Virus record (IMG/VR): IMGVR_UViG_2534681878_000029
DNA: 27,110 bases
Source of the DNA: a virus
Taxonomy: Duplodnaviria > Heunggongvirae > Uroviricota > Caudoviricetes
Direction: 5' to 3' (one strand)
Part shown: positions 4,641 through 20,743 of the stretch, piece after piece
Position numbering within the stretch: the first letter of the stretch is position 1
Layout: the number at the start of each line of letters is the position of its first letter
The notes under the pieces: model-generated
Seen by the model: the letters and a program-made list of their open reading frames with translations, nothing else
Databases searched by the model: none
What the model was told of the DNA's origin: nothing
Made by a program: the position numbers and the translations under genes

Positions 4641-5563
4641 ATGACAAATACAGCAAAAATACTCAACTTCGGCAGAGGTAACTTTGCCGGACAGGAGCGT
4701 AATGTGGCAGATCTCGATGATGGTTACGCCAGACTATCAAATATGCTGCTTGAGGCTTATTCGGGCGCAGATCTGACCAAGCGACAGTTTAAAGTGCTGC
4801 TTGCCATTCTGCGTAAAACCTATGGGTGGAATAAACCAATGGACAGAATCACCGATTCTCAACTTAGCGAGATTACAAAGTTACCTGTCAAACGGTGCAA
4901 TGAAGCCAAGTTAGAACTCGTCAGAATGAATATTATCAAGCAGCAAGGCGGCATGTTTGGACCAAATAAAAACATCTCAGAATGGTGTATCCCTCAAAAC
5001 GAGGGAAAATCCCCTAAAACGAGGGATAAAACATCCCTCAAATTGGGGGATTGCTATCCCTCAAATTGGGGGATTGCTATCCCTCAAAACAGGGGGACAC
5101 AAAAGACACTATTACAAAAGAAAAAAGAAAAGATTATTCGTCCGAGAATTCTGGCGAATCCTCTGACCAGCCAGAAAACGATCTTTCTGTGGTTAAACCG
5201 GATGCTGCAATTCAGAGCGGCAGCAAGTGGGGAACAGCAGAAGACCTGACCGCCGCAGAGTGGATGTTTGACATGGTGAAGACCATCGCGCCATCAGCCA
5301 GAAAACCGAATTTTGCTGGGTGGGCTAACGATATCCGCCTGATGCGTGAACGTGACGGACGTAACCACCGCGATATGTGTGTGCTTTTCCGCTGGGCCTG
5401 CCAGGACAACTTCTGGTCCGGTAACGTGCTGAGTCCGGCCAAACTCCGCGACAAGTGGACCCAGCTCGAAATCAACCGTAACAAGCAACAGGCAGGCGTG
5501 ACAGCCAGCAAACCAAAACTCGACCTGACAAACACTGACTGGATTTACGGGGTGGATTTATGA
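4641..5563 (+). pseudogene. O: Lambda-type replication initiator O, frameshifted inside the ori iteron region
   Basis: N-terminal 140 aa in frame 0 (ORF 4641-5249) and C-terminal ~160 aa in frame +2 (ORF 5051-5563), both matching lambda O. The frame break coincides with a 23-bp tandem duplication of an iteron plus spacer. Confidence 0.8.
4989..5097 (+). repeat. ori-lambda iterons, five copies (one more than canonical), followed by an AT-rich tract
   Basis: ATCCCTCAAAACGAGGGA (4989-5006), ATCCCCTAAAACGAGGGA (5009-5026), ATCCCTCAAATTGGGGGA (5033-5050), TTGCT spacer, ATCCCTCAAATTGGGGGA (5056-5073), TTGCT spacer, ATCCCTCAAAACAGGGGGA (5079-5097); then the A-rich stretch at 5100-5135. Confidence 0.85.
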
Positions 5564-5635
5564 AAAACATCGCCGCACAGATGGTTAACTTTGACCGTGA
5601 GCAGATGCGTCGGATCGCCAACATCGATAACCAGG
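5560..5635 (+). pseudogene. P: Lambda-type P (helicase loader) 5' fragment, truncated by IS629 copy 2
   Basis: MKNIAAQMVNFDREQMRRIAN matches the lambda P N-terminus; the reading frame then enters the IS629 terminal repeat at 5636. Confidence 0.8.
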
Positions 5636-5677
5636 TGAACCGCCCCGGGTTTCCTGGAGAGTGTTTTATCTGTGAAC

Positions 5678-6568
5678 TCAGGCTGCCAGATCATCGTTTC
5701 CGATGGAAGCATAATAAGCTTTTTCTGCTTCTGCCGGAGGGATATGACCCAGCCTTCCCAGCAATCGTCGATTGTTATACCAGTCCACCCACGTGAGTGT
5801 GGCCAGTTCCACTTCTGCACGGTTTTTCCAGCTCTTACGGTGTATTACCTCCGCTTTGTAAAGACCATTGATGCTCTCCGCCATCGCGTTGTCATACGAG
5901 TCACCTGTACTCCCTGTTGATGCCAGCAGTTTTGCTTCTTTTAGTCGCTCCGTATAGGCCAGTGATACATACTGAGAACCTTTATCACTGTGATGGACTG
6001 TGCCGGACGGCCGACGGGCCCACAACGCCTGCTCCAGTGCATCCAGCACGAATGTCGTTTCCATAGACGATGAGACTCGCCACCCCACGATGTATCCGGC
6101 AAACACATCAATGATAAACGCCACATAGACGAAGCCCTGCCATGTGCTGACGTAAGTAAAATCAGCCACCCACAGCTGGTCAGGTCGTTCTGCCACGAAC
6201 TGACGGTTTACGCGGTCGCCTGCGGCAACGGCTTTCCGGCTGATGGTCGTACGGACCTTTTTACCCCGGAGAACACCGGCAAGTCCCATAACCGCCATGA
6301 GACGTGCCACTGTACATCTGGCCACCCTGATTCCTTCCCGTAACAACTGACGCCAGACTTTACGCACACCGTACACCTGATGATTTTCATCGTATACGCG
6401 CTGTATCTCTCTCTTCAGCCAGTCGTCGTGCTGCGCACGGGCACTGCGTTTATCCGGATGATGTCGCTGTTGCTGACAATGGTAATACGTTGACGGGGCA
6501 ATATGCAGTTCGCTGCATACCGGTCCGACCCCGTACTGCTCACGCAGCTTATCCAGCAGTGGCATCAT
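5678..6568 (-). CDS. IS3-family transposase OrfB (copy 2)
   Basis: 296 aa, ~99% identical to the 1770-2660 product (e.g. I192V, G212K, T278I differences). Confidence 0.9.
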
Positions 6569-6891
6569 TTTTTCCAGAGGCGGTCGAACTCCGCCTTCGC
6601 AAAATAAGCGGAAGCCTGGCGAAGGATATCGTTACTGCGGCGCAGTTCACGATTTTCACGTTCCAGCTCTTTCAGACGCTGACGTTCAGCGCTGGTGAGC
6701 CCACCATCACCGCCCCCGGTATCCCGCTCATGCTGGCGAACCCAGACACGCAGAGTCTCCGGCGTACAGCCAATCTTTGGGGCAATGGAACAAATTGCCG
6801 CCCACTGTGAGTCATATTCATCCTGACTTTCCAGAACCATACGAATCGCCCGCTGACGGACTTCGGGGGAAAAACGAGTATTTTTAGTCAT
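6565..6891 (-). CDS. IS3-family transposase OrfA (copy 2)
   Basis: C-terminal 108 aa of the 316-aa track ORF are identical to OrfA of copy 1; the ATG is at 6889-6891 (reverse strand). The upstream 208 aa of the track ORF are antisense read-through and not called. Confidence 0.9.
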
Positions 6892-6944
6892 CCTGTTTAC
6901 CTCTTTCTCAGGGAGTTTAGTCTCCAGGATTTCCGGGCGGTTCA

Positions 6945-7977
6945 AGGACATGACGATATCGGTCTGGGTCTTTCCTGATACTGATATTTCAGATGTATCG
7001 CGTGAGTTAATTGCGGCAATTAAACAGGGGTATCTAACAGTAAAAGCCGCCGGGGTATGGGCGGGGGGCATTGAAACACCTTCGGTGGAAACTCCATCGG
7101 AAGGCTCTAAATTTTTTGGTTTTGATATGGATAACGAATTCATCAGTGGTTTTGATGTAGGGGCATGGGGAGTATTACTCTGATGGCGAAAAATGACTTT
7201 AAAGCGTTTGCAACTGATCGAAATGCCAATGTTATGTCGCAGGAGGAATGGGAAGCGTTGCCTGCGCTTATATCCGGATTTACAGCAGGGAAAGCATCCA
7301 GTGCGCAAGTCAATAAGGTTATTCGGCAGGCCAGCTTTATTGCTGCAGCTCTGGCCCAGTTTGTAAGTGATAAAACGCAACGGGATGTGCTTGATAATGG
7401 TGATCTGCCCGGTTTTGTTGAATTGCTGGGATCGGGGTTTGCTGTTGAATACCTGAGCCGCAAGAATCCGTTTGGCGATATCAAATCGGACGGCACGGTG
7501 AAAACGGCTCTTCAAAACCTTGGTTTGGGAGAAGGTGCTCCAGCTATTGGCGTTCCGTTCTTCTGGCCGTCCGCTGCAATGCCAAATACTGTAATCGACA
7601 GCTGGTCCTGTATGGTGTTTTTGAAGTTCAACGGCGCGAAATTCTCTGCCACTGATTATCCTGTGCTGGCGAAAGTGTTTCCTTCGCTGGTATTACCTGA
7701 AGCCCGCGGTGATTTCATTCGTATCTGGGATGACGGGCGAGGTGCAGACGGTGGTCGCGAATTATTAAGCTGGCAGGCAGCTACAAACTTTTCTCAGTTT
7801 GCCGGGAATATAGGCGAAGGTGCGGGACACGCAATTAACTTTCATGATGGCATCGCCGGAAATCAGCCAGGATTTTCACGATTTAATTTCACCAGTAACT
7901 CTGTGGGTGATGGTGTGAATTTTGTTGCAGTCAGACCGCGAAATATTGCATTTAACTTTCTGGTGAGGGCTAAATAA
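6945..7977 (+). pseudogene. stf: Side tail fibre gene 3' remnant (C-terminal receptor-binding segment), 5' end removed at the IS629 junction
   Basis: ORF 7165-7977 (270 aa) is immediately followed by a tail-fibre assembly gene. The preceding 220 bp are open in another frame (6950-7183). No N-terminal tail-fibre shaft is present because the IS629 end is at 6944. Confidence 0.65.
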
Positions 7978-8570
7978 TGAAACCTGTTTTTGATGAAAAT
8001 GGGCTGGCTACAGTGCCGGGCGATATGCGTTGTTTTTATTATGATGCTGAAACATCTGAGTATACGGGCTGGTCTGATGAATATATTAATACTGGCGTAA
8101 GTATGCCCGCCTGTTCCACTGGTATTGACCCTGGCGAAAACATTCCGGGAAGAGTGGCAGTATTTACAGGTAAGGGATGGAGCCATGAAGAAGACCATCG
8201 CAATGAGACTGTTTACTCAATCGAAAATGGCGCAGCTGTTACAGTGGATTATATCGGTGCCATCAAAGACGGTTATGTCACGATTTCACCGTTAACGCCA
8301 TACGATAAATGGGATGGTGAGAAATGGGTGACAGACACTGAGGCACAACACAGTGCCGCAGTAGACGCGGCAGAAGCACAGCGCCAATCACTGATTGATG
8401 CAGCAATGGCTTCCATTAGTCTGATTCAGCTGAAGTTACAGGCCGGACGGAAACTGACTCAGGCAGAAACAACCCGACTTAACGCCGTGCTGGATTACAT
8501 TGACGCGGTGACGGCAACAGATACCAGCACCGCGCCGGATGTCATCTGGCCTGAACTGCCGGAGGCGTAG
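7977..8570 (+). CDS. tfa: Tail fibre assembly protein (Tfa-like chaperone)
   Basis: 197 aa; start overlaps the stf stop (TAATG). Its C-terminal motif ...LDYIDAVTATDTSTAPDVIWPELPEA has a counterpart in the convergent paralogue at 8542-8994 (...LDYLDALELVDTSGAPDIEWPTPPAVQAR). Confidence 0.85.
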   Translation: MKPVFDENGLATVPGDMRCFYYDAETSEYTGWSDEYINTGVSMPACSTGIDPGENIPGRVAVFTGKGWSHEEDHRNETVYSIENGAAVTVDYIGAIKDGYVTISPLTPYDKWDGEKWVTDTEAQHSAAVDAAEAQRQSLIDAAMASISLIQLKLQAGRKLTQAETTRLNAVLDYIDAVTATDTSTAPDVIWPELPEA

Positions 8571-8994
8571 GCCATTCAATATCTGGCGCACCGGAAGTAT
8601 CGACCAGCTCCAGTGCGTCCAGATAATCCAGCCACAAATTATATTGCGTCAGTTCGTCACCTTTCAGACGACCAATAGCCGCTTTACCGGGCCATTGCTT
8701 ACTGTTCATGTATTCGTTGGCCTGGTTAATTAGTAGCTGTCTTTCTGATTCAGTAATTTCAATAAGCTCTTCATGCGTGGGTGGAGGAATATCTGCCCAC
8801 GCAGGCAGCCCATCATCTCCGGCAATACGGATTTTTCCTTGTGGCGGTTCAGCCATAAACTCACTGATAATATTTTGATTTACTTCCTTAGCGTCTGATA
8901 AATCCCATCCCTCTGATTTATATTTATCAATCATATCCACAGGGAAAAAAGCATTATGCCTTGCGCTATAAACATATTCGTCCATATAAATCAC
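8542..8994 (-). CDS. Alternative tail fibre assembly protein (inverted-orientation paralogue)
   Basis: 150 aa, convergent with tfa and overlapping its 3' end; shares the C-terminal Tfa motif. This arrangement is typical of Pin/Gin/Cin invertible host-range cassettes. Confidence 0.8.
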   Translation of the reverse strand: MIYMDEYVYSARHNAFFPVDMIDKYKSEGWDLSDAKEVNQNIISEFMAEPPQGKIRIAGDDGLPAWADIPPPTHEELIEITESERQLLINQANEYMNSKQWPGKAAIGRLKGDELTQYNLWLDYLDALELVDTSGAPDIEWPTPPAVQAR

Positions 8995-9005
8995 CCTGAA
9001 TAAAA

Positions 9006-9419
9006 TTACTCACCAACAGCCCACCAACTGTAATTCATCGATACCGTGTCGCTGGTTGATGACGTTCTGTAAGCAGAATTAAAGCCGGTTAACGTTGGGC
9101 CTTCTGCAGTCATCACGAACCCTCGCCCAGCGCCTAAAGGCGCACCGCCATCACCAGAATGAGTAAGCATGGCGCAGTCCGCTTTTTTGGGGAAAGGGAT
9201 GCTGAATGTAATTCTCATTGTTTGCGTCGATAATGTCGGCGTAACCGCACCACGACCATATTGCAGGATTTTCCCGTTGGGTAATTTCATCCATCCATTA
9301 CCACTGGCAAAAGAGGCCATGTCCGGTATCTGATTTTCCCCTGTCCCCACATCCCGTTTTGCCGCTTCTCCCAAACCAACGTTTATGAAAATGCAGAAAT
9401 AACGAGCAAATGGCATCAT
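9006..9419 (-). CDS. Alternative tail fibre C-terminal cassette (silent orientation, no independent promoter expected)
   Basis: 137 aa ORF ending just upstream of the alternative tfa; Gly/Ser/Thr-rich like fibre tips; its 5' end overlaps the candidate crossover site at 9364-9389. Confidence 0.55.
   Translation of the reverse strand: MMPFARYFCIFINVGLGEAAKRDVGTGENQIPDMASFASGNGWMKLPNGKILQYGRGAVTPTLSTQTMRITFSIPFPKKADCAMLTHSGDGGAPLGAGRGFVMTAEGPTLTGFNSAYRTSSTSDTVSMNYSWWAVGE
9364..9389. promoter_or_regulatory. Candidate invertase crossover site (gix/pix-like 26-bp site)
   Basis: TTCTCCCAAACCAACGTTTATGAAAA fits the dyad pattern TTnnCnnAAACC-nn-GGTTTnnGnnAA known for Gin/Hin/Pin sites and lies just upstream of pin. 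I could not unambiguously locate the partner site. Confidence 0.45.
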
Positions 9420-9445
9420 TCCTGCTTTTGTCAGGGAGATCTACC

Positions 9446-10000
9446 ATGCTTATTGGCTATGTACGTGTGTCAACAAATGACCAGAACACAGATCTACAAC
9501 GTAATGCGCTGAACTGTGCAGGATGCGAGCTGATTTTTGAAGACAAGATAAGCGGTACAAAGTCCGAAAGGCCGGGACTGAAAAAACTGCTCAGGACATT
9601 ATCGGCAGGTGACACTCTGGTTGTCTGGAAACTGGATCGGCTGGGGCGCAGTATGCGGCATCTGGTCATTCTGGTTGAGGAGTTGCGCGAACGTGGCGTT
9701 AATTTTCGCAGCCTGACGGATGCTATTGATACCAGTACCCCAATGGGGCGCTTTTTCTTTCATGTGATGGGGGCCCTGGCTGAAATGGAACGAGAACTGA
9801 TTGTTGAACGAACAAAAGCTGGACTGGAAGCTGCTCGCGCACAGGGACGAATTGGTGGACGTCGTCCCAAACTTACACCAGAACAATGGGCGCAGGCCGG
9901 ACGATTAATTGCAGCAGGAATTCCTCGCCAGAAGGTAGCGATCATCTATGATGTTGGTGTATCGACACTGTATAAGAAGTTTCCGGCCGGAGATAAATGA
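9446..10000 (+). CDS. pin: Serine DNA invertase of the Pin/Gin/Hin family
   Basis: 184 aa from the ATG at 9446 (SD AGGGAG at 9434-9439): MLIGYVRVSTNDQNTDLQRNAL...VVWKLDRLGRSM...GRIGGRRPKL...; resolvase N-domain with catalytic Ser and C-terminal HTH. Confidence 0.9.
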   Translation: MLIGYVRVSTNDQNTDLQRNALNCAGCELIFEDKISGTKSERPGLKKLLRTLSAGDTLVVWKLDRLGRSMRHLVILVEELRERGVNFRSLTDAIDTSTPMGRFFFHVMGALAEMERELIVERTKAGLEAARAQGRIGGRRPKLTPEQWAQAGRLIAAGIPRQKVAIIYDVGVSTLYKKFPAGDK

Positions 10001-10057
10001 AACCGTAGCACGTCGTATGCAAGATCGTGCTGCGGTTTATGCTTACCACTTGAAGAT

Positions 10058-10927
<870 letters not shown>

Positions 10928-11010
10928 CTAACCCTTTGAATTTACATAGCGCAAAAAGATACCTTTCCTCATAATGTGAGCTAATTTTATGTTTCGTTTG
11001 ATGATCGGGT

Positions 11011-11072
11011 CGGTCTCGAAAACCGGAGTAGGGGCAACTCTACCGGGGGTTCAAATCCCCCTCTCTCCGCCA
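11011..11072 (+). tRNA. Partial tRNA-Ser (anticodon CGA, serU-like), 3' ~62 nt only: att-site remnant, not a functional gene
   Basis: CGGTCTCGAAAACCGGAGTAGGGGCAACTCTACCGGGGGTTCAAATCCCCCTCTCTCCGCCA matches the 3' part of enterobacterial tRNA-Ser(CGA) from the anticodon stem onward; the 5' D-arm and acceptor strand are absent. Confidence 0.8.
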
Positions 11073-11654
11073 CTTTATCAATGACTTATCTCCCGACTTC
11101 CCGTCTTGCTTTTCCTAAACAGAACAATCGTAGAATATTCTTGAAGGGTTAGATCGTCACTGTTTTCTGTTCGATACTGTGACATTCAGCACTTGATTCG
11201 CTATGGATCTGACAGGAAGGTTTTGAGCGAAAATCTGCAGTTATTCAGTCGTTTTCTTATCGGTCACCATTATTCTTTTAGACATTGATCCTACAAAGCT
11301 GCCGTAAAGTTGGTGGTGGGAACTGAAGTTGCGTAGAGAAGGGGTCAATACCCGGAGGCAAACATGGGCTGGCAAAAGTGTAGCGGTATTAGGCGCAGCT
11401 ATTTAGCCTAGTTATGTTTTATGAAAACTTGATATCATATAAGTGTCTTACTTATTGGCTGTAAATAAGTTTTTCCTAAGGAATTGTTTCTTGAGTATCA
11501 TTTGTAACTGTAACGGAATTTATAATCCTTTGCTTTATTGTTACGGTATTTTTTATCACACCCTATTTTTAGTGGTTTTTTATACTGAAGTTTGGCAAAG
11601 TGAACTTTATATACATATACTTCATCCTGGTTTCAGTTAAATTGGGGGGATGAT

Positions 11655-12398
11655 ATGGCAACTACATGTTCAGTTATATTGATTTTGGAGTCCTTTGATG
11701 TTTATTTCGGAAAAGAGAGTGTGTTTCTGGAGAGAGGTTCATCTGTACTTGTCGACTCTAGCTCTAGAGATTTTTTCCTGACATATCCTGAAAGAGTGAT
11801 AGTGGCGGATTTTGGCGCTGAGTTTATTAGTCGCTATTTGAAAGCTAATAACTTAAGGGATATTTCTGATTGTAGGGAATATCCATCTTATTTAAAAATA
11901 AACTTTGCTGACTTCAGTTTAATTAAAGGATTAATTAGTTGGGCTAATCACTGTGCTGAATACATAGAAATTTTTGATGAGTCTATTGCTTTTACATGTC
12001 TCTCTGCATTTTCTTCTGAAAAACAATTTGGAGTATTTCTGTTTGGATGTTTGAAAAGCACAGGGGCTAAAGTTAAAACGATTATTCATACGGATTTATC
12101 TGCACCATGGCGTCTTAAGGATATATCATCAAGATTATATCTCAGCGAAAGTTTACTAAAGAGGAAATTGAAAGAAGAGGGGGTATCATTCAGTAAGATC
12201 ATACTTGATGAGAGGATGCAAATGGCTGAATATTTACTCAGCACTCGTTGTTATCCTATTAGTAAAGTAGCTAAGGTCTGTGGTTATGCCAGTGTCTCAT
12301 ACTTTACTTATGTATTTAGACGTTATTTTGGTGTTTCTCCAAGTCAATACTCTCAGAGGAGTTCAGAAAGTAAAATTCTTACTCACCAGGGAATCTGA
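11655..12398 (+). CDS. AraC/XylS-family transcriptional regulator (AppY/GadX-like)
   Basis: 247 aa, strong SD GGGGGGA before the ATG; N-terminus MATTCSVILILESFD resembles AppY (MDYVCSVVFICQSFD); C-terminal AraC-type HTH (...KVAKVCGYASVSYFTYVFRRYFGVSPSQY). Sits in an AT-rich segment. Confidence 0.8.
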   Translation: MATTCSVILILESFDVYFGKESVFLERGSSVLVDSSSRDFFLTYPERVIVADFGAEFISRYLKANNLRDISDCREYPSYLKINFADFSLIKGLISWANHCAEYIEIFDESIAFTCLSAFSSEKQFGVFLFGCLKSTGAKVKTIIHTDLSAPWRLKDISSRLYLSESLLKRKLKEEGVSFSKIILDERMQMAEYLLSTRCYPISKVAKVCGYASVSYFTYVFRRYFGVSPSQYSQRSSESKILTHQGI

Positions 12399-12439
12399 TC
12401 ATTGTTCTTGCCCCCTTATTTCCAGACAGGGGGGGTATC

Positions 12440-12805
12440 TTAAGTTAACGTTACCCGCTGACGTCGATATTCTCGCGGAGAGCGATAACCCAACGCACTG
12501 TGCGGATGGTTTTCATTGTAATGTTCGATCGCCACTGCAAGATTATGCAATGCCGTTCTTACATTCGGTTTCGGCATGAACGCGATGTAGTCTTCCTTCA
12601 TCGTTTTCACGAACCTTTCTGCAATTCCATTACTCTGAGGACTGCTGATTGCCGTTGTGCAGGGCTCCAGATTCAACTCTCTGGCGAACTGCCGTGTTTC
12701 ATGCGCTCTATACGCTGAACCGTTATCTGTCAGCCACTGGATGGACTGTTCCGGTACTTTATCGCCAAAGCGTTTTTCTATCGCTCCTAACATGACATCC
12801 TGCAC
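12440..12805 (-). pseudogene. IS3-family (IS2-group) transposase OrfB C-terminal fragment
   Basis: 121 aa ...[51 protein letters not shown]...[14 protein letters not shown] resembles the IS2 InsD C-terminus; no intact upstream catalytic domain or OrfA. Confidence 0.8.
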
Positions 12806-13152
12806 TGTCGCTTTATCGTAACCTCCCGTGCTTGCGGCCCAGTCTATGGCTTCACGATCGCAACAGTCCAGGGCGATTCATCTGGGCCAATCCTTGCTCA
12901 TAACAGGCATTCACTTCAGTCATGGCAGAAAGGTATGCATGCTGGAGAAGTCGTGAAAGAAAAGAAGACTGCTGCGCCGTTTGTCGTCACGTTTATCTTC
13001 ATTGGCTATGCAAGTCGTAATACAAGGTGGGACAAAACTGAGACACATAAGGCCTCGCAATGGCTTGCAAGGCTTTACATGTTTTGATGTGGTGGGACGT
13101 GTGAGCGCAGTGTTGATGGGGTAATGCTTTGAATTAGAAGCGGATTCTTATA

Positions 13153-13198
13153 ATTCGTAATGCGAAGGTCGTAGGTTCGACTCCTATTATCGGCACCA
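13153..13198 (+). tRNA. Partial tRNA-Thr (anticodon CGU, thrW-like), 3' ~46 nt only: attL core of the P4-like element
   Basis: ATTCGTAATGCGAAGGTCGTAGGTTCGACTCCTATTATCGGCACCA equals the 3' part of tRNA-Thr(CGU) from the anticodon loop; the upstream sequence is unrelated to the tRNA 5' half. Confidence 0.8.
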
Positions 13199-13360
13199 TC
13201 TCAACTTCCTCAAACGTCCGTATTAGTCCATAAAATCTCTGATTTATAACATTTTTTATTCTTTTAAGTCCATAGTAGTCCGTAACCATCCAGTAGAATC
13301 CGGTACTGAATGTGTATAGGATTGTGTATATGTTCCTGTTCGGTCTGGATTCCTATACAC

Positions 13361-14542
13361 ATGCCTTTAAACGATATGCAGATTCGCCGCGCTAAGCCTG
13401 AAGCTAAAGCCTATACATTTGGAGATGGGCTAGGGTTGTCATTACTTATAGAACCTAATGGAAGCAAGAGTTGGCGGTTCCGCTATCGCTATGCCGGCAA
13501 ACCCAAAATGATCTCGCTTGGTGTTTACCCAACGATCACCCTTGCCGATGCTCGTTCCCGTCGTGATGAAGCTCGAAAACTTGTGGCAGAAGGAAAGAAC
13601 CCTAGTGAGGTTCGAAAAGAGCAAAAGCTAGCTATGCAAACAGAGTCAGAGAACGCCTTCGAAAAGATAGCCAGAGAGTGGCATCAACTTAAATCTGCTA
13701 AATGGTCGGCGGGATATGCATCAGACATCATGGAAGCGTTTAAGAACGACATTTTTCCTTATGTCGGAACAAGGCCTGTGGGAGAGATTAAACCGCTAGA
13801 GCTGCTGAACGTTCTGCGTAAAATTGAGAAACGTGGTGCGTTGGAGAAAATGCGCAAAGTGCGGCAGCGTTGCTCCGAAGTGTTTCGCTACGCAATTGCA
13901 ACGGGTAGGGCGGAGTACAATCCTGCGGCTGATCTCTCCAGCGCTCTCGAAGTACACCAATCCAATCATTTCCCATTCCTAAAAGCTGATGAGATACCTG
14001 ATTTTCTACGTGCCTTAGAGGGTTACTCCGGGAGTAAGCTTGTCCAGATAGCCACGAAATTACTGATGATTACGGGTGTGAGAACCATCGAATTACGCGC
14101 GGCATTATGGCAAGAATTTGATCTGGATAACGCTATTTGGGAAATTCCTGCTGAAAGGATGAAAATGCGTAGGCCACATCTTGTGCCCTTATCATCTCAA
14201 GCGGTAGATTTACTCAATGAACTCAAGATCATGACAGGGAACTATCGTTATGTTTTTCCAGGGCGGAACGATCCGAATAGGCCAATGAGCGAAGCGAGTA
14301 TAAATCAAGCCATTAAGCGTATTGGGTATGGAGGAAAAGTCACTGGACATGGTTTTCGTCATACCCTTTCTACAATCCTGCATGAGCAAGGTTTTGAGAG
14401 TGCTTGGATTGAAATCCAGTTGGCTCATGTAGATAAAAATTCTATTAGGGGGACTTATAACCATGCTCAATATTTTAGTGGAAGGAAGTCTATGATGGAC
14501 TGGTACAGTAATTTGATATTTGAAAGACTAAAAAGGAGTTAA
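13361..14542 (+). CDS. int: P4-type tyrosine integrase (IntA/IntS-like, DUF4102 N-domain)
   Basis: MPLNDMQIRRAKPEAKAYTFGDGLGLSLLIEPNGSKSWRFRYRYAGKPK... with the C-terminal R...HGFRHT...Y catalytic signature; directly downstream of the tRNA-Thr fragment. Start moved to the ATG at 13361 because the track extension overlaps an inverted repeat. Confidence 0.9.
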   Translation: MPLNDMQIRRAKPEAKAYTFGDGLGLSLLIEPNGSKSWRFRYRYAGKPKMISLGVYPTITLADARSRRDEARKLVAEGKNPSEVRKEQKLAMQTESENAFEKIAREWHQLKSAKWSAGYASDIMEAFKNDIFPYVGTRPVGEIKPLELLNVLRKIEKRGALEKMRKVRQRCSEVFRYAIATGRAEYNPAADLSSALEVHQSNHFPFLKADEIPDFLRALEGYSGSKLVQIATKLLMITGVRTIELRAALWQEFDLDNAIWEIPAERMKMRRPHLVPLSSQAVDLLNELKIMTGNYRYVFPGRNDPNRPMSEASINQAIKRIGYGGKVTGHGFRHTLSTILHEQGFESAWIEIQLAHVDKNSIRGTYNHAQYFSGRKSMMDWYSNLIFERLKRS

Positions 14543-14545
14543 TTT

Positions 14546-14962
14546 GTGTCTCAACCACTTTCGGAAATATTGACATGGGATGATGAACAATGGGAGGTAT
14601 TTGTCCATGATTGGCTTATTGTCTGTAAATCAGATGATTACCCGTGGAGCGAACGTTTGGGAGGAGCTGGAGATAAAGGTAGAGACGTTGTTGGATATAA
14701 ATCGGATCCTAACGTAGAAGGTTATTCTTGGGATAATTATCAATGCAAACTGTACAAAAAAAGTTTAGGGTTCTCTGATGTTGTAGTTGAGTTTGGAAAA
14801 CTTATCTATTTTACTCTGAATGGTGATTATCCCATCCCTCAGAAGTACTTTTTTGTGGCACCCTATGATTTATCTACTACATTTTCTAATTTATTGAAAA
14901 ATAAAAACGAGCTTAAAAAAGCAGTCCTTGATTCATGGGATTCAGCAATTTCAAAAAAATAA
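14546..14962 (+). CDS. Mrr-like PD-(D/E)xK nuclease-domain protein (candidate effector, N-terminal part)
   Basis: GTG start 4 nt after the int stop with SD AAGGAG at 14533-14538. Motif GGAGDKGRDVVGY ... YQCKLYKK (residues 39-72) matches the Mrr_cat pattern g-DgG-D ... QcK. AT-rich. Confidence 0.6.
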   Translation: MSQPLSEILTWDDEQWEVFVHDWLIVCKSDDYPWSERLGGAGDKGRDVVGYKSDPNVEGYSWDNYQCKLYKKSLGFSDVVVEFGKLIYFTLNGDYPIPQKYFFVAPYDLSTTFSNLLKNKNELKKAVLDSWDSAISKK

Positions 14963-15552
14963 CTAAAAAGATTGATATTCCATTAGATGATGAAATAAAA
15001 AAATATATTGAGGATTTTGATTTTAGTATTTTTTACTCTCTACCCTTATCATTGATTTTAAATGATATTGCAAATACACACCTTTATTTTAAGTACTTTA
15101 ACGAGCTGTATGTCGTGAGAATCCCTCCAAATGAAATTCCAACATACAATTCAAAAAAAGAGTCTGTATATGTTAATGCACTGCTTCAAGCCTATTCAGA
15201 GCATGGAAATAAAACTTATAGTTCTTTCTTAGAGCTTGATGATCCATACAGACGACACTTTAATAATAGTAGAAATGATTTTTATTTTGCATCTTCGCTT
15301 GAGGTTTTTGTCCGCGAAGTATTTAAAGATGATGTATTCAAAGCATTGAAATGTTACATTTCATCTTCAATTGAACCCGTCTTTTATGAAGACCATAATT
15401 ATGCATTTATTAGGTGTAATGCAGTCTTGAAGCAGGCTGTTCTGACACCAATTGCACATTCAGTACTATCAAAAATATGTGAAGCAAATGATAAAAAAGG
15501 AATATGCCATCATTTGGTTAATGATGGTGAAGTAATTTGGACGGTGAGATAA
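14935..15552 (+). CDS. Hypothetical protein; possibly the C-terminal continuation of the preceding ORF via -1 frameshift at an A7 run
   Basis: 205 aa ORF overlapping the previous one by 28 nt in the -1 frame; the overlap contains AAAAAAA (14953-14959) followed by the 0-frame stop; no recognisable motif. Confidence 0.5.
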   Translation: MGFSNFKKITKKIDIPLDDEIKKYIEDFDFSIFYSLPLSLILNDIANTHLYFKYFNELYVVRIPPNEIPTYNSKKESVYVNALLQAYSEHGNKTYSSFLELDDPYRRHFNNSRNDFYFASSLEVFVREVFKDDVFKALKCYISSSIEPVFYEDHNYAFIRCNAVLKQAVLTPIAHSVLSKICEANDKKGICHHLVNDGEVIWTVR

Positions 15553-16010
15553 TGGTTAGAATTTATAATTCAAGTTTAGAAGTGGCATGTCGAATGGCGA
15601 AAGTGCTCGTCGCTATTTATCCTTCTTCATTAAGCCTTGAACGGCTTATTTGTTTTGATTTTATTTTAGTAAATCTTAAGGATTTTTTACCTGAAGAGAT
15701 TAGTCTTCATCCTCCAATACCCCGTAGAGATGCTCAGTTAGCCCTAAAACGAGAGATTGTTTTAGAATCATTGGCTTTGTTGCAAGGCTATGAACTAGCC
15801 TCAAAAATTTATACACATCGTGGTTTTGTATATAAAGCTTCTGAAAAAACATATGCATTTACAAATTCTCTACATAATGAATATGTTGCGCAGATGGAGC
15901 ATAATATAAATTTGGTGGTTAAGTTATATAGTGATATTCCTGATGAGCAGTTGCAATCAATTATAAAAAATAAAATTGGCAAATATGATATGGAATTTAA
16001 TTATGAATGA
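15552..16010 (+). CDS. Hypothetical small protein (middle component)
   Basis: 152 aa from the ATG at 15552, overlapping the upstream stop as TAATG (translational coupling); no recognisable motif. Confidence 0.5.
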   Translation: MVRIYNSSLEVACRMAKVLVAIYPSSLSLERLICFDFILVNLKDFLPEEISLHPPIPRRDAQLALKREIVLESLALLQGYELASKIYTHRGFVYKASEKTYAFTNSLHNEYVAQMEHNINLVVKLYSDIPDEQLQSIIKNKIGKYDMEFNYE

Positions 16011-16635
16011 CAATTTTTTTACGTTCAGAAAAATAAAGGTAACCGGATTCAATAAATTAGATGCTATAATTGAATTTGGTTCTAAATTGACTATTTTATA
16101 TGGTGGTTCTGACTCTGGAAAAACATACATATATTATTTGATTCGATATTTATTAGGGAGTGAAAAACTAAAAAATAAAGATATCGATCATGCTCAAGGT
16201 TATGATTTAGCCTATCTGGAATTTAATTTTCAAGGTAGGGTAATGACAATTGAGAGGTCTCTTCAGGATAGCGCCCATTACAGATTATATGATTCGAGCA
16301 TTGAAAATGTTAGTGAAGCTAATCTGTTGATGGTTTTTTCCAAAAGTGCTTCGTCTAAAAAGAGTTTTTCATCATACTTTTATGGTAGGTTGAATTTCAA
16401 AGAGGCTAAAGTAAGAACAAACTTAAGTAATACTCTTCATAAATTTAATCTTAATAATGTTTTTGAATTTTTTTGTATTGATGAATTAAGAGTGTTAACT
16501 GAGAAGTCGTTAATTCTTTCTGATATTCCTAGCGAGGAGACAAAAAGAAAGTCTGAATTTAAATTCCTTTTAACTCAGAGAGATGATACTAACTCCTTAG
16601 CAGAAAAACCAAATAAAAAAGCAAGATATTTTTAA
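15985..16635 (+). CDS. ABC/SMC-like ATPase, N-terminal head with Walker A
   Basis: FRKIKVTGFNKLDAIIEFGSKLTILYGGSDSGKT: the SMC/RecF/RecN-type N-terminal strand followed by P-loop GGSDSGKT (nt 16102-16125). Start uncertain (ATG 15985 or 16003). Confidence 0.6.
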   Translation: MIWNLIMNDNFFTFRKIKVTGFNKLDAIIEFGSKLTILYGGSDSGKTYIYYLIRYLLGSEKLKNKDIDHAQGYDLAYLEFNFQGRVMTIERSLQDSAHYRLYDSSIENVSEANLLMVFSKSASSKKSFSSYFYGRLNFKEAKVRTNLSNTLHKFNLNNVFEFFCIDELRVLTEKSLILSDIPSEETKRKSEFKFLLTQRDDTNSLAEKPNKKARYF

Positions 16636-16665
16636 AAAAATCAAATTGCAAATATTTATGAGGAA

Positions 16666-17256
16666 TTGAAAGCGCAATTAATTTATCCTGAATATGATCA
16701 AGTCATTGTTTCAAGAGAACTTGAGAAAGTAGAGCAAGATATTGAATCATCGAAAGATATATTGAAAGGTATTGTTGATGCACTTGATGATAAGAAGCAA
16801 TTATTAAAAGAGTTAAGTGATGAATTATATTCAATCAGTGACAGGGAAAAATACTTATCATTACTCATTGAAAGATTTAGTCTTCTTAAAGACCAATACT
16901 TTATAGATCTACAAAGAATAGATGTTGTATCACAGGCGAATTTCTATTTAAATAATTTTGCAGATATTTATTGTGAGTTCTGTAATACACCGCAAAAAAA
17001 AGAAAATGAAATATCATATGATGATTGTTTTTTGTCGTGTAATGCAGAAAAATTGAAAATCAAAAGCCAGCTGAAAGGATTAATTGAATCAATCGGATCT
17101 AATGTTCGCGAACATGAATTAATTATGTTAAGAAAAAATGATGTTAATGAAATTTATCAATCAGAAAAAAGTGATTTTAAGACGTTAGAAGATAAAAATA
17201 TAAAACAATACATTCATCTCTTGAATCACTTTATGAATATAAAGACAATCTTTTAA
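16666..17256 (+). CDS. Coiled-coil segment, same frame as the preceding ORF and separated from it only by a single TAA
   Basis: 196 aa rich in heptad-like K/E/L/I repeats; the track start is TTG with no convincing SD; in frame with 15985-16635 across the TAA at 16633-16635. Confidence 0.5.
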   Translation: MKAQLIYPEYDQVIVSRELEKVEQDIESSKDILKGIVDALDDKKQLLKELSDELYSISDREKYLSLLIERFSLLKDQYFIDLQRIDVVSQANFYLNNFADIYCEFCNTPQKKENEISYDDCFLSCNAEKLKIKSQLKGLIESIGSNVREHELIMLRKNDVNEIYQSEKSDFKTLEDKNIKQYIHLLNHFMNIKTIF

Positions 17257-17822
17257 TGGATCACACAAAACATAGCATTCTATCTTCATTACAAGATAAA
17301 GAAGATGATGTTGACGAACTTAAATACTCCGCCGAGGACTTTGACTCCTTAACAGTAGCTGATTTGTATGATATAGAAATAGCGATGCAAGACTTTTTGA
17401 ATGATATAAATTTTGAAAATTCTAAAGATAACAAAGTGCGATTTGACGAAGATACATATGACTTTAATATCAATGGGAAACGCCGAGGAATGTTTGGTAA
17501 AGGTACCCGTGCAGTAATGCATGCTATATTTACCATTTGCTTTGCGGAATTTTTATCAAGAAAAGGGAATCCATTCATTGGATTTGTTGTGCTTGATAGT
17601 CCATTAGTGACGCACTTTGATAAAGATAGAGGGGGTTCTCTATCGGATGTTAATAGCGTCAGTCTCAGTGATTCATTTTATCACGCATTAATCAAAAGGG
17701 ACTATAATTTCCAGATTGTAATTCTTGAGAATAAAGGTCCGACGTTCCAAATAAAAATTAATGATGCAAATAAAATCCATAACTTAAATAAGAATGGAAG
17801 CTCTGGTTTTTATCCTGTTTAA
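17256..17822 (+). CDS. ABC/SMC-like ATPase, C-terminal head with signature-like and Walker B motifs
   Basis: ...RRGMFGKGTRAVMHAIFTICFAEF (signature-like region) followed ~20 aa later by IGFVVLDSP (Walker B-like hhhhD); ATG overlaps the upstream stop as TAATG. Confidence 0.55.
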   Translation: MDHTKHSILSSLQDKEDDVDELKYSAEDFDSLTVADLYDIEIAMQDFLNDINFENSKDNKVRFDEDTYDFNINGKRRGMFGKGTRAVMHAIFTICFAEFLSRKGNPFIGFVVLDSPLVTHFDKDRGGSLSDVNSVSLSDSFYHALIKRDYNFQIVILENKGPTFQIKINDANKIHNLNKNGSSGFYPV

Positions 17823-18231
17823 TACATTAAAAATATAACTGCTAATTGGGGTGCTCGAAATTATATTTCGTTTCGAGCGCTCAGTTCATTTCTAAATAAT
17901 TTGCAAAATTATTTTGGGTACTTTCGCCTCTACACTTCCTTCGGGTGGTTCCACAATAATGGATCTCACCGGCGTTTGATATTTTATAATCTAACCCCTT
18001 AGCGCGCGCAGCCCCCCACGCCTGCTCGCTTCGCTTAACAGACTGGTTTTCATGCATTCCGCAAATCGTCTCAGAAGCCACCACACAAGGGCTTTCGCGT
18101 CAAAAATGGTGCATGAGAATCATGCGTTTTCATGCGCTATAGACATGCACTCATGCGCTCTCAGGCCAGCCAGGGAAAAGGCGTAAAAAATCCCAGTACT
18201 GGACCGGGATTACGTGGGCTTTTTTTGCTAA

Positions 18232-20196: not shown

Positions 20197-20743
20197 CACA
20201 TAAATAGACTGCATGTTTTTGCCGGGGAATAACATTTTCGCCTCTGGCCATGGTGTTGCATTTCATACTGATTTTTATAAAACTAGATCTGTCCGGTTCT
20301 TTATGGATTCATTCGGATATATTTTACGATTTAAGGTGATGTTATTTAATATCAAGGTTTTTATGCAGGCCCAATGTTTATAAGTTGGATGCGATTCAAA
20401 AATATGCCCGGAAATTGGGGCCTGCAATGCAAGGCCTCGTGTAGAAGTTGTACTGCCTTGCTGTATTGGCGGTGGGGTTAGCACTATCAGGTGCAATGAC
20501 CCATAGGATAGTAAACCCTGGGTGAATGGTAGTTCCTATTAATGCTCCTGTATTTATAGTCCGCAGGCATGGTATTTATTATGTCATTTTATATGGTTTA
20601 ATCGGGCTTTAAATTCCATAAAATCAATATGTGACGCTAAATAAAAAATGCGTGCGCAGGTGGTTTATATACACATAATAAGGAACTACCTGAACCCGGA
20701 TAAATTCATCCGGACTGTTGTGGAAATTAAAGAGGGTAGATAA

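Follow-up and report, generated by a model that had tools for sequence, protein, structure and literature searches.

Positions 7183-10000 of the DNA analysed here, a stretch of 27,110 nucleotides referred to as the window, very probably (with a probability of roughly 0.88) hold a complete, functional-looking, site-specific Pin inversion switch that belongs to the Hin/Gin/Cin/Pin family, is of the same type as the P segment of e14 and is stranded in Sp1/CP-933H, the defective, lambdoid and decayed prophage of E. coli O157:H7 to which the window corresponds. Aligned with Sakai, the window shows only one mismatch, at 11305. The kind of system is already known, and nothing about it is new in kind. 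Its gene set and layout, with the order fibre, tfa, tfa', alternative tip and pin, are those given in the preliminary description of this DNA, which had recognised an invertible tail-fibre module with a Pin-type invertase, of the kind known from e14, Mu and P1. That description had also held that all other tail genes are lost, and indeed none remains in the prophage: besides the module, no tail or head gene is left in Sp1 except about 82 codons of a DUF2612 gene.

Genes and crossover sites of the Pin module

The module comprises the following features.

7183..7977, plus strand: complete gene for a tail fibre of 264 aa (assigned to the PHROG families tail fibre and tail collar)
7508..7533, minus strand: fibre-internal crossover site, pixL-like, TTCTCCCAAACCAAGGTTTTGAAGAG (inverted repeat, position weight matrix and likeness to e14)
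7977..8570, plus strand: tfa, tail-fibre assembly chaperone for tip A (Pfam Caudo_TAP, 2.3e-27; PHROG 105)
8542..8994, minus strand: tfa', tail-fibre assembly chaperone for tip B (Pfam Caudo_TAP, 2.9e-30; PHROG 188)
9006..9377, minus strand: tip B cassette, an alternative fibre tip with a gp53-like C-terminal domain (Pfam Gp53-like_C, 1e-12)
9366..9391, plus strand: pin-proximal crossover site, pixR-like, TTCTCCCAAACCAACGTTTATGAAAA (position weight matrix and likeness to e14)
9380..9419, minus strand: fixed leader, MMPFARYFCIFIN..., outside the segment (part of ORF 9006-9419)
9446..10000, plus strand: pin (pinH/pinE), encodes a DNA invertase of 184 aa from the small serine recombinases (Pfam Resolvase, 8.3e-52; Pfam HTH_7, 1.1e-15)
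9464..9535, no strand assigned: putative recombinational enhancer, presumably dependent on Fis, in the 5' part of pin (by position, the counterpart of the enhancer annotated in P1 cin)

All 264 residues of the fibre align without gaps to the fibre of the intact phage vB_EcoM-611R5, which is also 264 aa long (256/264 identical, 97%) and comes after Baseplate_J and DUF2612 genes. Judged by this homology, the fibre gene is full length and its constant N-terminal part is present, contrary to the earlier view that this part is gone and the fibre 'decapitated'. The constant part covers 7183-7520 (about 113 aa) and is followed by the variable tip A, which is of the tail-collar type (7521-7977). The frame change at 7165-7183, formerly read as a break in the fibre frame, is a gene boundary with the sequence TGATG, where the stop codon of an upstream DUF2612 remnant (TGA, 7181-7183) overlaps the fibre start codon (ATG, 7183-7185). 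Both Caudo_TAP genes lie inside the invertible segment in convergent orientation, and the ends of tfa and tfa' overlap. The ORF that holds tip B extends to 9419 (9006-9419, minus strand); in the window orientation, tip B is joined to the short pin-proximal leader and not to the fibre constant part.

The two crossover sites are imperfect palindromes of 26 bp each, lie in inverted orientation and have the same central dinucleotide AA, which is located at 9378-9379 in the pin-proximal site and appears as plus-strand TT at 7520-7521 in the fibre-internal site. Their inverted repeat is exact over 14 bp and near-exact over 20 bp, and the shared 14-mer has two matches in the window versus 0.01 expected by chance. 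In a window-wide scan with a position weight matrix (PWM) built from Mu and P1 sites only, with 200 shuffles as the control, the fibre-internal site ranked first in the 27 kb (27.9 bits) and the pin-proximal site second (21.8 bits), the shuffle maximum being 18.3 bits. Positions 20342-20367 were considered as a third site and rejected, as their score of 13.6 bits is under the shuffle maximum. At 24 of 26 positions, the fibre-internal site agrees with the site that e14 has within stfP, and the pin-proximal site matches its e14 equivalent completely (26/26). Mosaic boundaries with other phages also coincide with the sites (7515 and 7456-7534; 7538 and 9365). A gix/pix-like site adjoining pin had previously been placed at 9364-9389 and is present 2 bp away from there. 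For its partner, the region 7100-7170 had been searched in vain; this part of the observation stands, as the best PWM score in 6945-7200 is 0.1 bits, but a partner does exist at 7508-7533. It was missed because the search addressed the gene start, whereas the site forms the constant/variable boundary inside the ORF, which is also its place in Mu, P1 and e14. The lesson for annotation is that the crossover of a tail-fibre switch marks this boundary within the ORF and not the start of the gene.

When Pin is aligned with PinE, Gin and Cin, its catalytic Ser9 proves invariant, and the protein is 97% identical to e14 PinE, 82% to Cin and 78% to Gin. The positional references were taken from phage P1, in which cixL and cixR, the crossover points and an enhancer within the 5' part of cin are annotated. 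The enhancer-equivalent region of the window is identical to e14 at 70/72, to P1 at 55/72 and to Mu at 54/72 positions. It contains two G-N13-C motifs, 49 bp apart, which it shares with e14 and Mu and the first of which is absent in P1; a strict scan for the Fis consensus returned one match only. By homology to e14 and P1, in preference to motif calls, Fis would presumably act at 9464-9535. A PD-T4-3 defence gene adjoins pin in Sp1.

The upstream deletion and the IS629 insertion

Three features precede the fibre gene.

5560..5623, plus strand: remaining N-terminal part of a replication gene resembling lambda P, MKNIAAQMVNFDREQMRRIAN..., the start of a chimeric P'::baseplate' ORF (from its translation)
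5636..6944, minus strand (transposase ORFs): insertion sequence of the IS629/IS1203 type (ends read directly)
6948..7183, plus strand: C-terminal remnant of a DUF2612 baseplate gene (match to a 226-aa protein of vB_EcoM-611R5)

Together with 5624-5635, the DUF2612 remnant represents about the last 82-86 of 226 residues. It is identical at 82 of 86 positions to residues 141-226 of the vB_EcoM-611R5 protein, which at full length is a member of Pfam DUF2612 (E 2.5e-47). DNA homology to this baseplate gene of the intact phage starts at window position 5624 (Sakai L001 7992), and the deletion junction is located at 5623/5624, 12 bp upstream of IS629. Through a deletion, the final ~82 codons of the DUF2612 baseplate gene were joined to the P-like replication gene, and in the strain of the window the IS629 copy arrived later, 12 bp downstream of the junction. 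The pseudogene annotated in RefSeq as 'replication protein P' conceals this P'::baseplate' chimera.

An IS629 end had been reported at 6944, and an IS629/IS1203-type element does end there; it shares 98.3% identity with an element whose annotation is IS1203 family. Its interpretation as the edge of the truncation is not tenable. Sakai has no IS629 at this site and its flanks are contiguous, the element is bordered by a 3-bp target duplication (AGG, at 5633-5635 and 6945-6947), and the real junction is the one described above. IS629 represents a simple insertion and lies outside the switch, at a distance from both sites, the enhancer and pin; this mode of insertion and the upstream position of the junction exclude the element as the cause of tail loss. 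As a second lesson for annotation, an IS end adjoining a truncated gene need not mark the truncation edge. Two junction-spanning queries (IS629 end plus fibre plus either orientation) retrieved no genome with IS629 at position 5636 among 5,426 complete RefSeq E. coli genomes. Expression of the fibre in the IS629-bearing strain is doubtful, because IS629 now lies between the fibre gene and the early operon. A scan of 6800-10100 for consensus promoters and terminators gave counts indistinguishable from those of shuffles, which makes it uninformative on expression, and revealed no standout promoter upstream of the fibre gene.

Inversion isomers and their interpretation

The local Pin would pair the two 26-bp sites, presumably with assistance from Fis at the enhancer in the 5' part of pin, and would then invert the 1,856-bp segment between them. 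Because the left site is situated at the constant/variable boundary inside the fibre ORF, a flip would exchange the C-terminal tip and align the matching chaperone gene. In the window state, the constant part continues into tip A and forms the 264-aa fibre, which would be served by tfa. Inversion in silico places tip B in frame with the constant part, and the outcome would be a 236-aa fibre accompanied by tfa'. The other tip would meanwhile become fused to the short fixed leader beside pin; the predicted fusions are 137 aa long with tip B (the present state) and 165 aa with tip A. The genes of the module would presumably be expressed.

Both isomers exist. The window orientation is found with 100% identity over 3,056 bp in 125 complete genomes, and the predicted inverted isomer, at the same identity and length, in 91. 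In the near-isogenic pairs TT12B/TT12A and 107/110, 15.6-kb flanks on each side contain 0 mismatches and the inter-site segment alone is flipped. The breakpoints in both pairs fall inside the shared 14-bp half-sites, and the outer half-sites are unmoved. In strains 107/110, an IS copy within the segment flipped along with it, and thus this inversion postdates the IS insertion. The window module is base-for-base identical to the genomes that represent the two isomers. Judged from these comparisons, the switch is active in the O157:H7 population that carries the exact window sequence. The switch still flips in O157:H7, long after the decay of the phage that it served, and this yields small structural differences among otherwise identical outbreak isolates. 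On inversion and pinE/pinH/CP-933H/Sp1 in O157, the library searched contained general surveys and one proteome in which PinH is listed, but no paper on the inversion of this locus.

The host range of a virion is beyond the reach of this switch, because all other tail genes have been lost. Mechanically, it resembles a host-range switch, but it cannot act as one. It is either a still-running relic or co-opted. For the latter case, a role in phage defence is conceivable but rather unlikely. By analogy with the PinQ/PinE-StfE2 device of e14, in which StfE2 blocks adsorption of phage T2 (Kirigo et al. 2025; PMC12529663), the 137-aa protein composed of leader and gp53-like tip might mask a surface receptor and block adsorption in a phase-variable manner. 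The 137-aa ORF (9006-9419, minus strand) has the architecture of StfE2, with Gp53-like_C at residues 45-136 behind a leader that is 89% identical to the leader of StfE/StfE2, and the four possible products of the window switch match StfP, StfE, StfP2 and StfE2 of e14 one-to-one. The PD-T4-3 gene beside pin, comparable to mcrA beside e14 pinE, would also fit. However, the 137-aa protein shares only 31% identity overall with StfE2 (E 1e-9), the tip itself is only about 31% identical to that of e14, no PADLOC model matches the leader-tip protein, and what is known of StfE2 goes back to one study based largely on overexpression and docking (PMC12529663). The 100% conservation across O157:H7 is uninformative about a defence role, because the clone is young. 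If the analogy holds, the 137-aa fusion could mask an outer-membrane receptor in the window orientation, which is that of 125 of the 216 matching genomes, and a flip would swap it for the 165-aa collar-type protein with a different specificity. The Sp1 end with the adjacent PD-T4-3 would then be a small defence island in O157:H7. With the switch in Sp1, the recent claim that relic switches function in phage defence (PMC12529663) gains a second natural system in which it can be put to the test.

That the local Pin is the enzyme responsible is also subject to an alternative. Another invertase might act in trans, with the local pin being dispensable or weak. In K-12, inversion of the e14 P segment is mainly due to PinQ/PinR acting in trans, and PinE yields less (PMC12529663). 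Such cross-reaction occurs within the invertase family, and the cores of the window sites are the same as those of e14. Against this stands that PinH is made, as the protein has been reported in an O157 proteome (PMC3936929), and flipping by an invertase in trans is distinctly unlikely here.

A locally encoded and active switch, the preferred reading, also has to be weighed against the earlier suspicion that inversion is frozen. Truncation by IS629 would have removed the partner site together with the fibre N-terminus and made inversion impossible. The absence of the other tail genes, the lack of a site in 6945-7200 and the absence of the IS629-bearing lineage from complete genomes would agree with such a relic. 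The partner site inside the fibre gene exists, however, the fibre gene is full length, IS629 lies outside the switch as a simple insertion, and the identical sequence occurs in both orientations in silico, including the isomer in 91 complete genomes and the two near-isogenic pairs that differ by the flip. A frozen switch is thus very improbable. Hardly credible is that the orientations are assembly artefacts, or products of RecA recombination at the 14-bp exact (20-bp near-exact) inverted repeat shared by the arms, as repeats of 14-20 bp are too short to mislead assemblers and under the usual minimum length for efficient RecA exchange, the exchange falls exactly on canonical 26-bp invertase sites adjoining an invertase gene, and each isomer was assembled many times over, in 91 and 125 independent complete genomes. 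The homologous segment of e14, moreover, has been flipped experimentally by Pin proteins (PMC12529663).

Comparison with known inversion systems

The closest relative of the switch is the P segment of e14 with PinE. It has the same layout, fibre-tfa followed by tfa'-tip'-pin, and the same short pin-proximal leader ORF, and its sites (26/26 and 24/26), Pin (97%) and enhancer-equivalent (70/72) are near-identical to those of the window. The site repeats of e14 are the ones that were inverted experimentally (PMC12529663). Both prophages are defective and without a complete tail, both carry a defence gene beside pin (mcrA in e14, PD-T4-3 in Sp1), and both switches are represented by the two isomers among sequenced strains. 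There are also differences. DNA similarity is limited to the sites, pin and the 3' ends of tfa, and the tips are just 31-47% identical. The constant part and the upstream baseplate gene belong to another lineage, which is of the DUF2612 type here and of the DUF2313 type (ymfQ) in e14. The segment measures 1,856 bp here versus 1,797 bp in e14, and still less of the tail region is left in Sp1 than in e14.

In the G segment of Mu, which is inverted by Gin, the crossover is likewise placed within the fibre gene, where Sc meets Sv. As in the window, the cassettes Sv-U and U'-Sv' are convergent and the invertase is encoded just outside the segment, and the 26-bp sites have the AAACC..GGTTT core in common. 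Mu differs in being a viable phage with a full baseplate and tail, whose switch sets the host range, and in its segment of about 3 kb and longer fibres. The C segment of P1 with Cin follows the same logic as the window switch. Its segment is 4.2 kb long, P1 is a viable phage-plasmid, and with respect to the constant part of S, cin lies on the other side.

The intact myophages vB_EcoM-611R5, 606R2 and 683R1 are collinear with window positions 6945-8807 at about 95-97%, a stretch that takes in the DUF2612 C-terminus, the fibre gene in full, tfa and a portion of tfa'. In contrast to Sp1, they have a complete baseplate and tail, and their tail modules show the form of the undeleted ancestor. vB_EcoM-611R5 has a shortened alternative tip and an invertase CDS of just 104 aa. 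To judge from these reading frames, it is the switch of vB_EcoM-611R5, and not that of the window, that looks degraded.

Gene set and crossover sites of the module

The gene content attributed to the module in the preliminary description is borne out by ORF predictions and by Pfam and PHROG family matches.

Features of the module and its downstream neighbour (coordinates, strand, identity)
7183-7977, plus: fibre ORF, ATG at 7183, 264 aa
7508-7533, minus: left (fibre-internal) crossover site, 26-mer TTCTCCCAAACCAAGGTTTTGAAGAG, central AA
7977-8570, plus: chaperone gene tfa (Caudo_TAP)
8542-8994, minus: chaperone gene tfa' (Caudo_TAP), convergent with tfa
9006-9377, minus: gp53-like fibre-tip cassette (profile match); ORF extends to 9419
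9366-9391, plus: pin-proximal crossover site, 26-mer TTCTCCCAAACCAACGTTTATGAAAA, central AA
9446-10000, plus: pin, serine invertase, 184 aa, full length
10058-10882, minus: GIY-YIG (LEM-3-like) gene that follows pin directly; full-length match to PADLOC PD-T4-3, E 2.3e-140

Pin shares 97% identity with e14 PinE over its full length and retains Ser9. The segment equivalent to the P1 enhancer (the annotated reference) is identical to that of e14 at 70 of 72 positions, and from homology the switch may be expected to depend on Fis. A PinH protein is listed in a rumen-fluid proteome of O157 (PMC3936929). The local Pin is the probable recombinase; in K-12, however, PinQ and PinR act on e14 in trans, and PinE has a weaker effect (PMC12529663).

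The gix/pix-like site previously recognized next to pin is real, although its 26-mer occupies 9366-9391 instead of 9364-9389. Its inverted partner, reported as missing, is indeed absent near the fibre start, where the best score within 6945-7200 was 0.1 bits, but is found further downstream at 7508-7533. These values derive from a symmetrised position weight matrix built only from Mu gix and the annotated P1 cixL and cixR, with the e14 sites of K-12 kept for comparison. The left and pin-proximal sites reached 27.9 and 21.8 bits, respectively, the top two scores of the 27-kb window, against a maximum of 18.3 bits in 200 shuffles. The third-ranked match (TTATTTAATATCAAGGTTTTTATGCA, 20342-20367, 13.6 bits) remains under this maximum and thus probably is a chance occurrence. 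The longest inverted repeat within 6900-10100 pairs 7515-7534 with 9365-9384, and the 14-mer TTCTCCCAAACCAA has two exact matches in the window, at 7520-7533 (minus) and 9366-9379 (plus), where 0.01 would be expected by chance. Compared with the e14 sites, 24 of 26 positions are identical at 7508-7533 and all 26 at 9366-9391; experimental inversion of the e14 P segment was shown to take place at the repeats that form the cores of these sites (PMC12529663). As in Mu and P1, the left site lies at the boundary between the constant and variable parts of the fibre ORF. Mosaic breakpoints coincide with it: homology to mEp213/mEp043 begins at ~7515 and SfV-type homology covers ~7456-7534. Homology to e14 stops at 7538 and restarts at 9365.

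Both orientations in O157:H7 genomes

Positions 6945-10000 are 100% identical to chromosomes of E. coli O157:H7, among them Sakai and EDL933. The Sakai counterpart is annotated as "prophage Sp1, lambda-like phage" and adjoins thrW. The whole window is collinear with Sakai except for two insertions of ~1.3 kb (1395-2706 and 5636-6944), which are IS629/IS1203-type elements in mutually opposite orientation, both lacking in Sakai Sp1. Over 6945-18000 the only mismatch, at 11305, does not touch the module. Sp1 and the P4-like prophage Sp2 are integrated in tandem and meet at a 47-bp exact copy of the thrW 3' end (13153-13199); in related strains, Sp2 is annotated with ABC-three-component-system genes.

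In-silico inversion of 7522-9377 (1,856 bp) places the gp53-like tip in frame behind the 113 constant residues, giving a 236-aa fibre followed by tfa'. This predicted isomer is present with 100% identity over 3,056 bp in 91 complete genomes at the same chromosomal locus, and the window's orientation in 125. Decisive here are two near-isogenic pairs with opposite orientations, TT12B and TT12A (both from faeces, Yokosuka) and cattle strain 107 and strain 110, whose module sequence is identical to that of the window. In both pairs the flanks (15,590 and 15,636 bp per pair) contain no mismatch, the reversal is confined to the stretch between the sites, and the outer half-sites are unmoved. In strains 107 and 110 (loci L005 and L006, positions 16413-17722), an IS1203/IS629 copy inside tfa was inverted together with the segment; the inversion therefore postdates this insertion. 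The earlier suggestion of a frozen switch is thus largely wrong, because the partner site and the inverted isomer, which the preliminary description itself took as signs of activity, are both found as far as sequence data reach. By these genome comparisons, the feature is an ordinary and apparently active Pin switch within a decayed prophage.

Origin of the truncation

The fibre had been described as decapitated at the IS629 end. However, the intact myophages vB_EcoM-611R5, 606R2, and 683R1 have a counterpart of 6945-7977 with 97% identity. In this region, 611R5 has a Baseplate_J gene, a 226-aa DUF2612 gene and a 795-bp fibre gene in this order, and its fibre aligns with that of the window end to end without gaps (256 identities in 264 residues), so the N-terminus is the natural one. 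The stretch 6950-7183 encodes the DUF2612 C-terminus (82 of 86 residues identical to residues 141-226 in 611R5), and its stop codon (TGA, 7181-7183) shares a base with the start codon of the fibre (ATG, 7183-7185). What was read as a frame change is an ordinary overlap of two genes.

The coding sequence before DUF2612 residue ~145 has been lost, together with all that preceded it. The N-terminus that continues in frame into the DUF2612 remnant in Sakai is lambda-P-like (MKNIAAQMVNFDREQMRRIAN); homology to phage baseplate gene DNA starts at window position 5624. The corresponding gene, ECs_0279 (window 5560-5635 plus 6945-7183), appears in the annotation as a pseudogene of "replication protein P", an assignment we reject in favor of an in-frame chimera of ~21 P-like and the last ~82 DUF2612 codons. 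This chimera marks the deletion that took out the late region. IS629 (5636-6944) inserted 12 bp past that junction, where it duplicated a 3-bp target (AGG) and split a stretch that is continuous in Sakai. The insertion came later and is strain-specific; it did not cause the truncation, and it is clear of the sites, the enhancer equivalent, and pin. All 5,426 complete RefSeq E. coli genomes lack IS629 at this position, so the window stems from an O157:H7 lineage absent among them.

Present role and relation to known switches

In Sakai-type Sp1 the fibre lies downstream of cro-cII-O'-P' on the same strand, and the early promoter could drive its transcription. The window has IS629, with an antisense transposase, between the early genes and the fibre, and a consensus promoter scan of 6800-10100 gave counts no different from shuffles. 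No baseplate or tail is present in Sp1, and the switch therefore cannot set virion host range. By default, we regard it as a relic that still runs.

An anti-phage role would be an alternative. The inverted state of e14 makes StfE2, a short pin-proximal leader plus gp53-like tip reported to block T2 adsorption (PMC12529663; Kirigo et al., 2025). The four in-silico products of the window correspond one-to-one to e14 StfP, StfE, StfP2, and StfE2, and its current orientation is the StfP2 plus StfE2-like state. The leader of the 137-aa ORF at 9006-9419 is 89% identical to that of e14, with 31% overall identity to StfE2 (E 1e-9). PD-T4-3 is a known anti-phage defence protein (PADLOC model), and the match at 10058-10882 thus places a defence gene beside the invertase, as mcrA adjoins pinE in e14. 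These analogies are suggestive, but such a role seems rather improbable.

By mechanism and membership tests the module belongs to the Hin/Gin/Cin/Pin family of switches and corresponds in type to the e14 P segment. The kind of switch, its mechanism, and the pinE/pinH annotation were already established, and genome-wide surveys report programmed inversions to be enriched for tail-fibre, tfa, and DUF2612 genes (PMC9881135); our literature search found no description of inversion at the O157 Sp1 pin locus. Unlike in e14, the constant part derives from a DUF2612-type myophage lineage, and the tips differ too. In the otherwise intact 611R5 (L002, 11041-11780), the invertase CDS has only 104 aa, and that of the alternative tip only 55 aa. 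There the switch appears degraded and the tail intact, whereas the window appears to represent the reverse.
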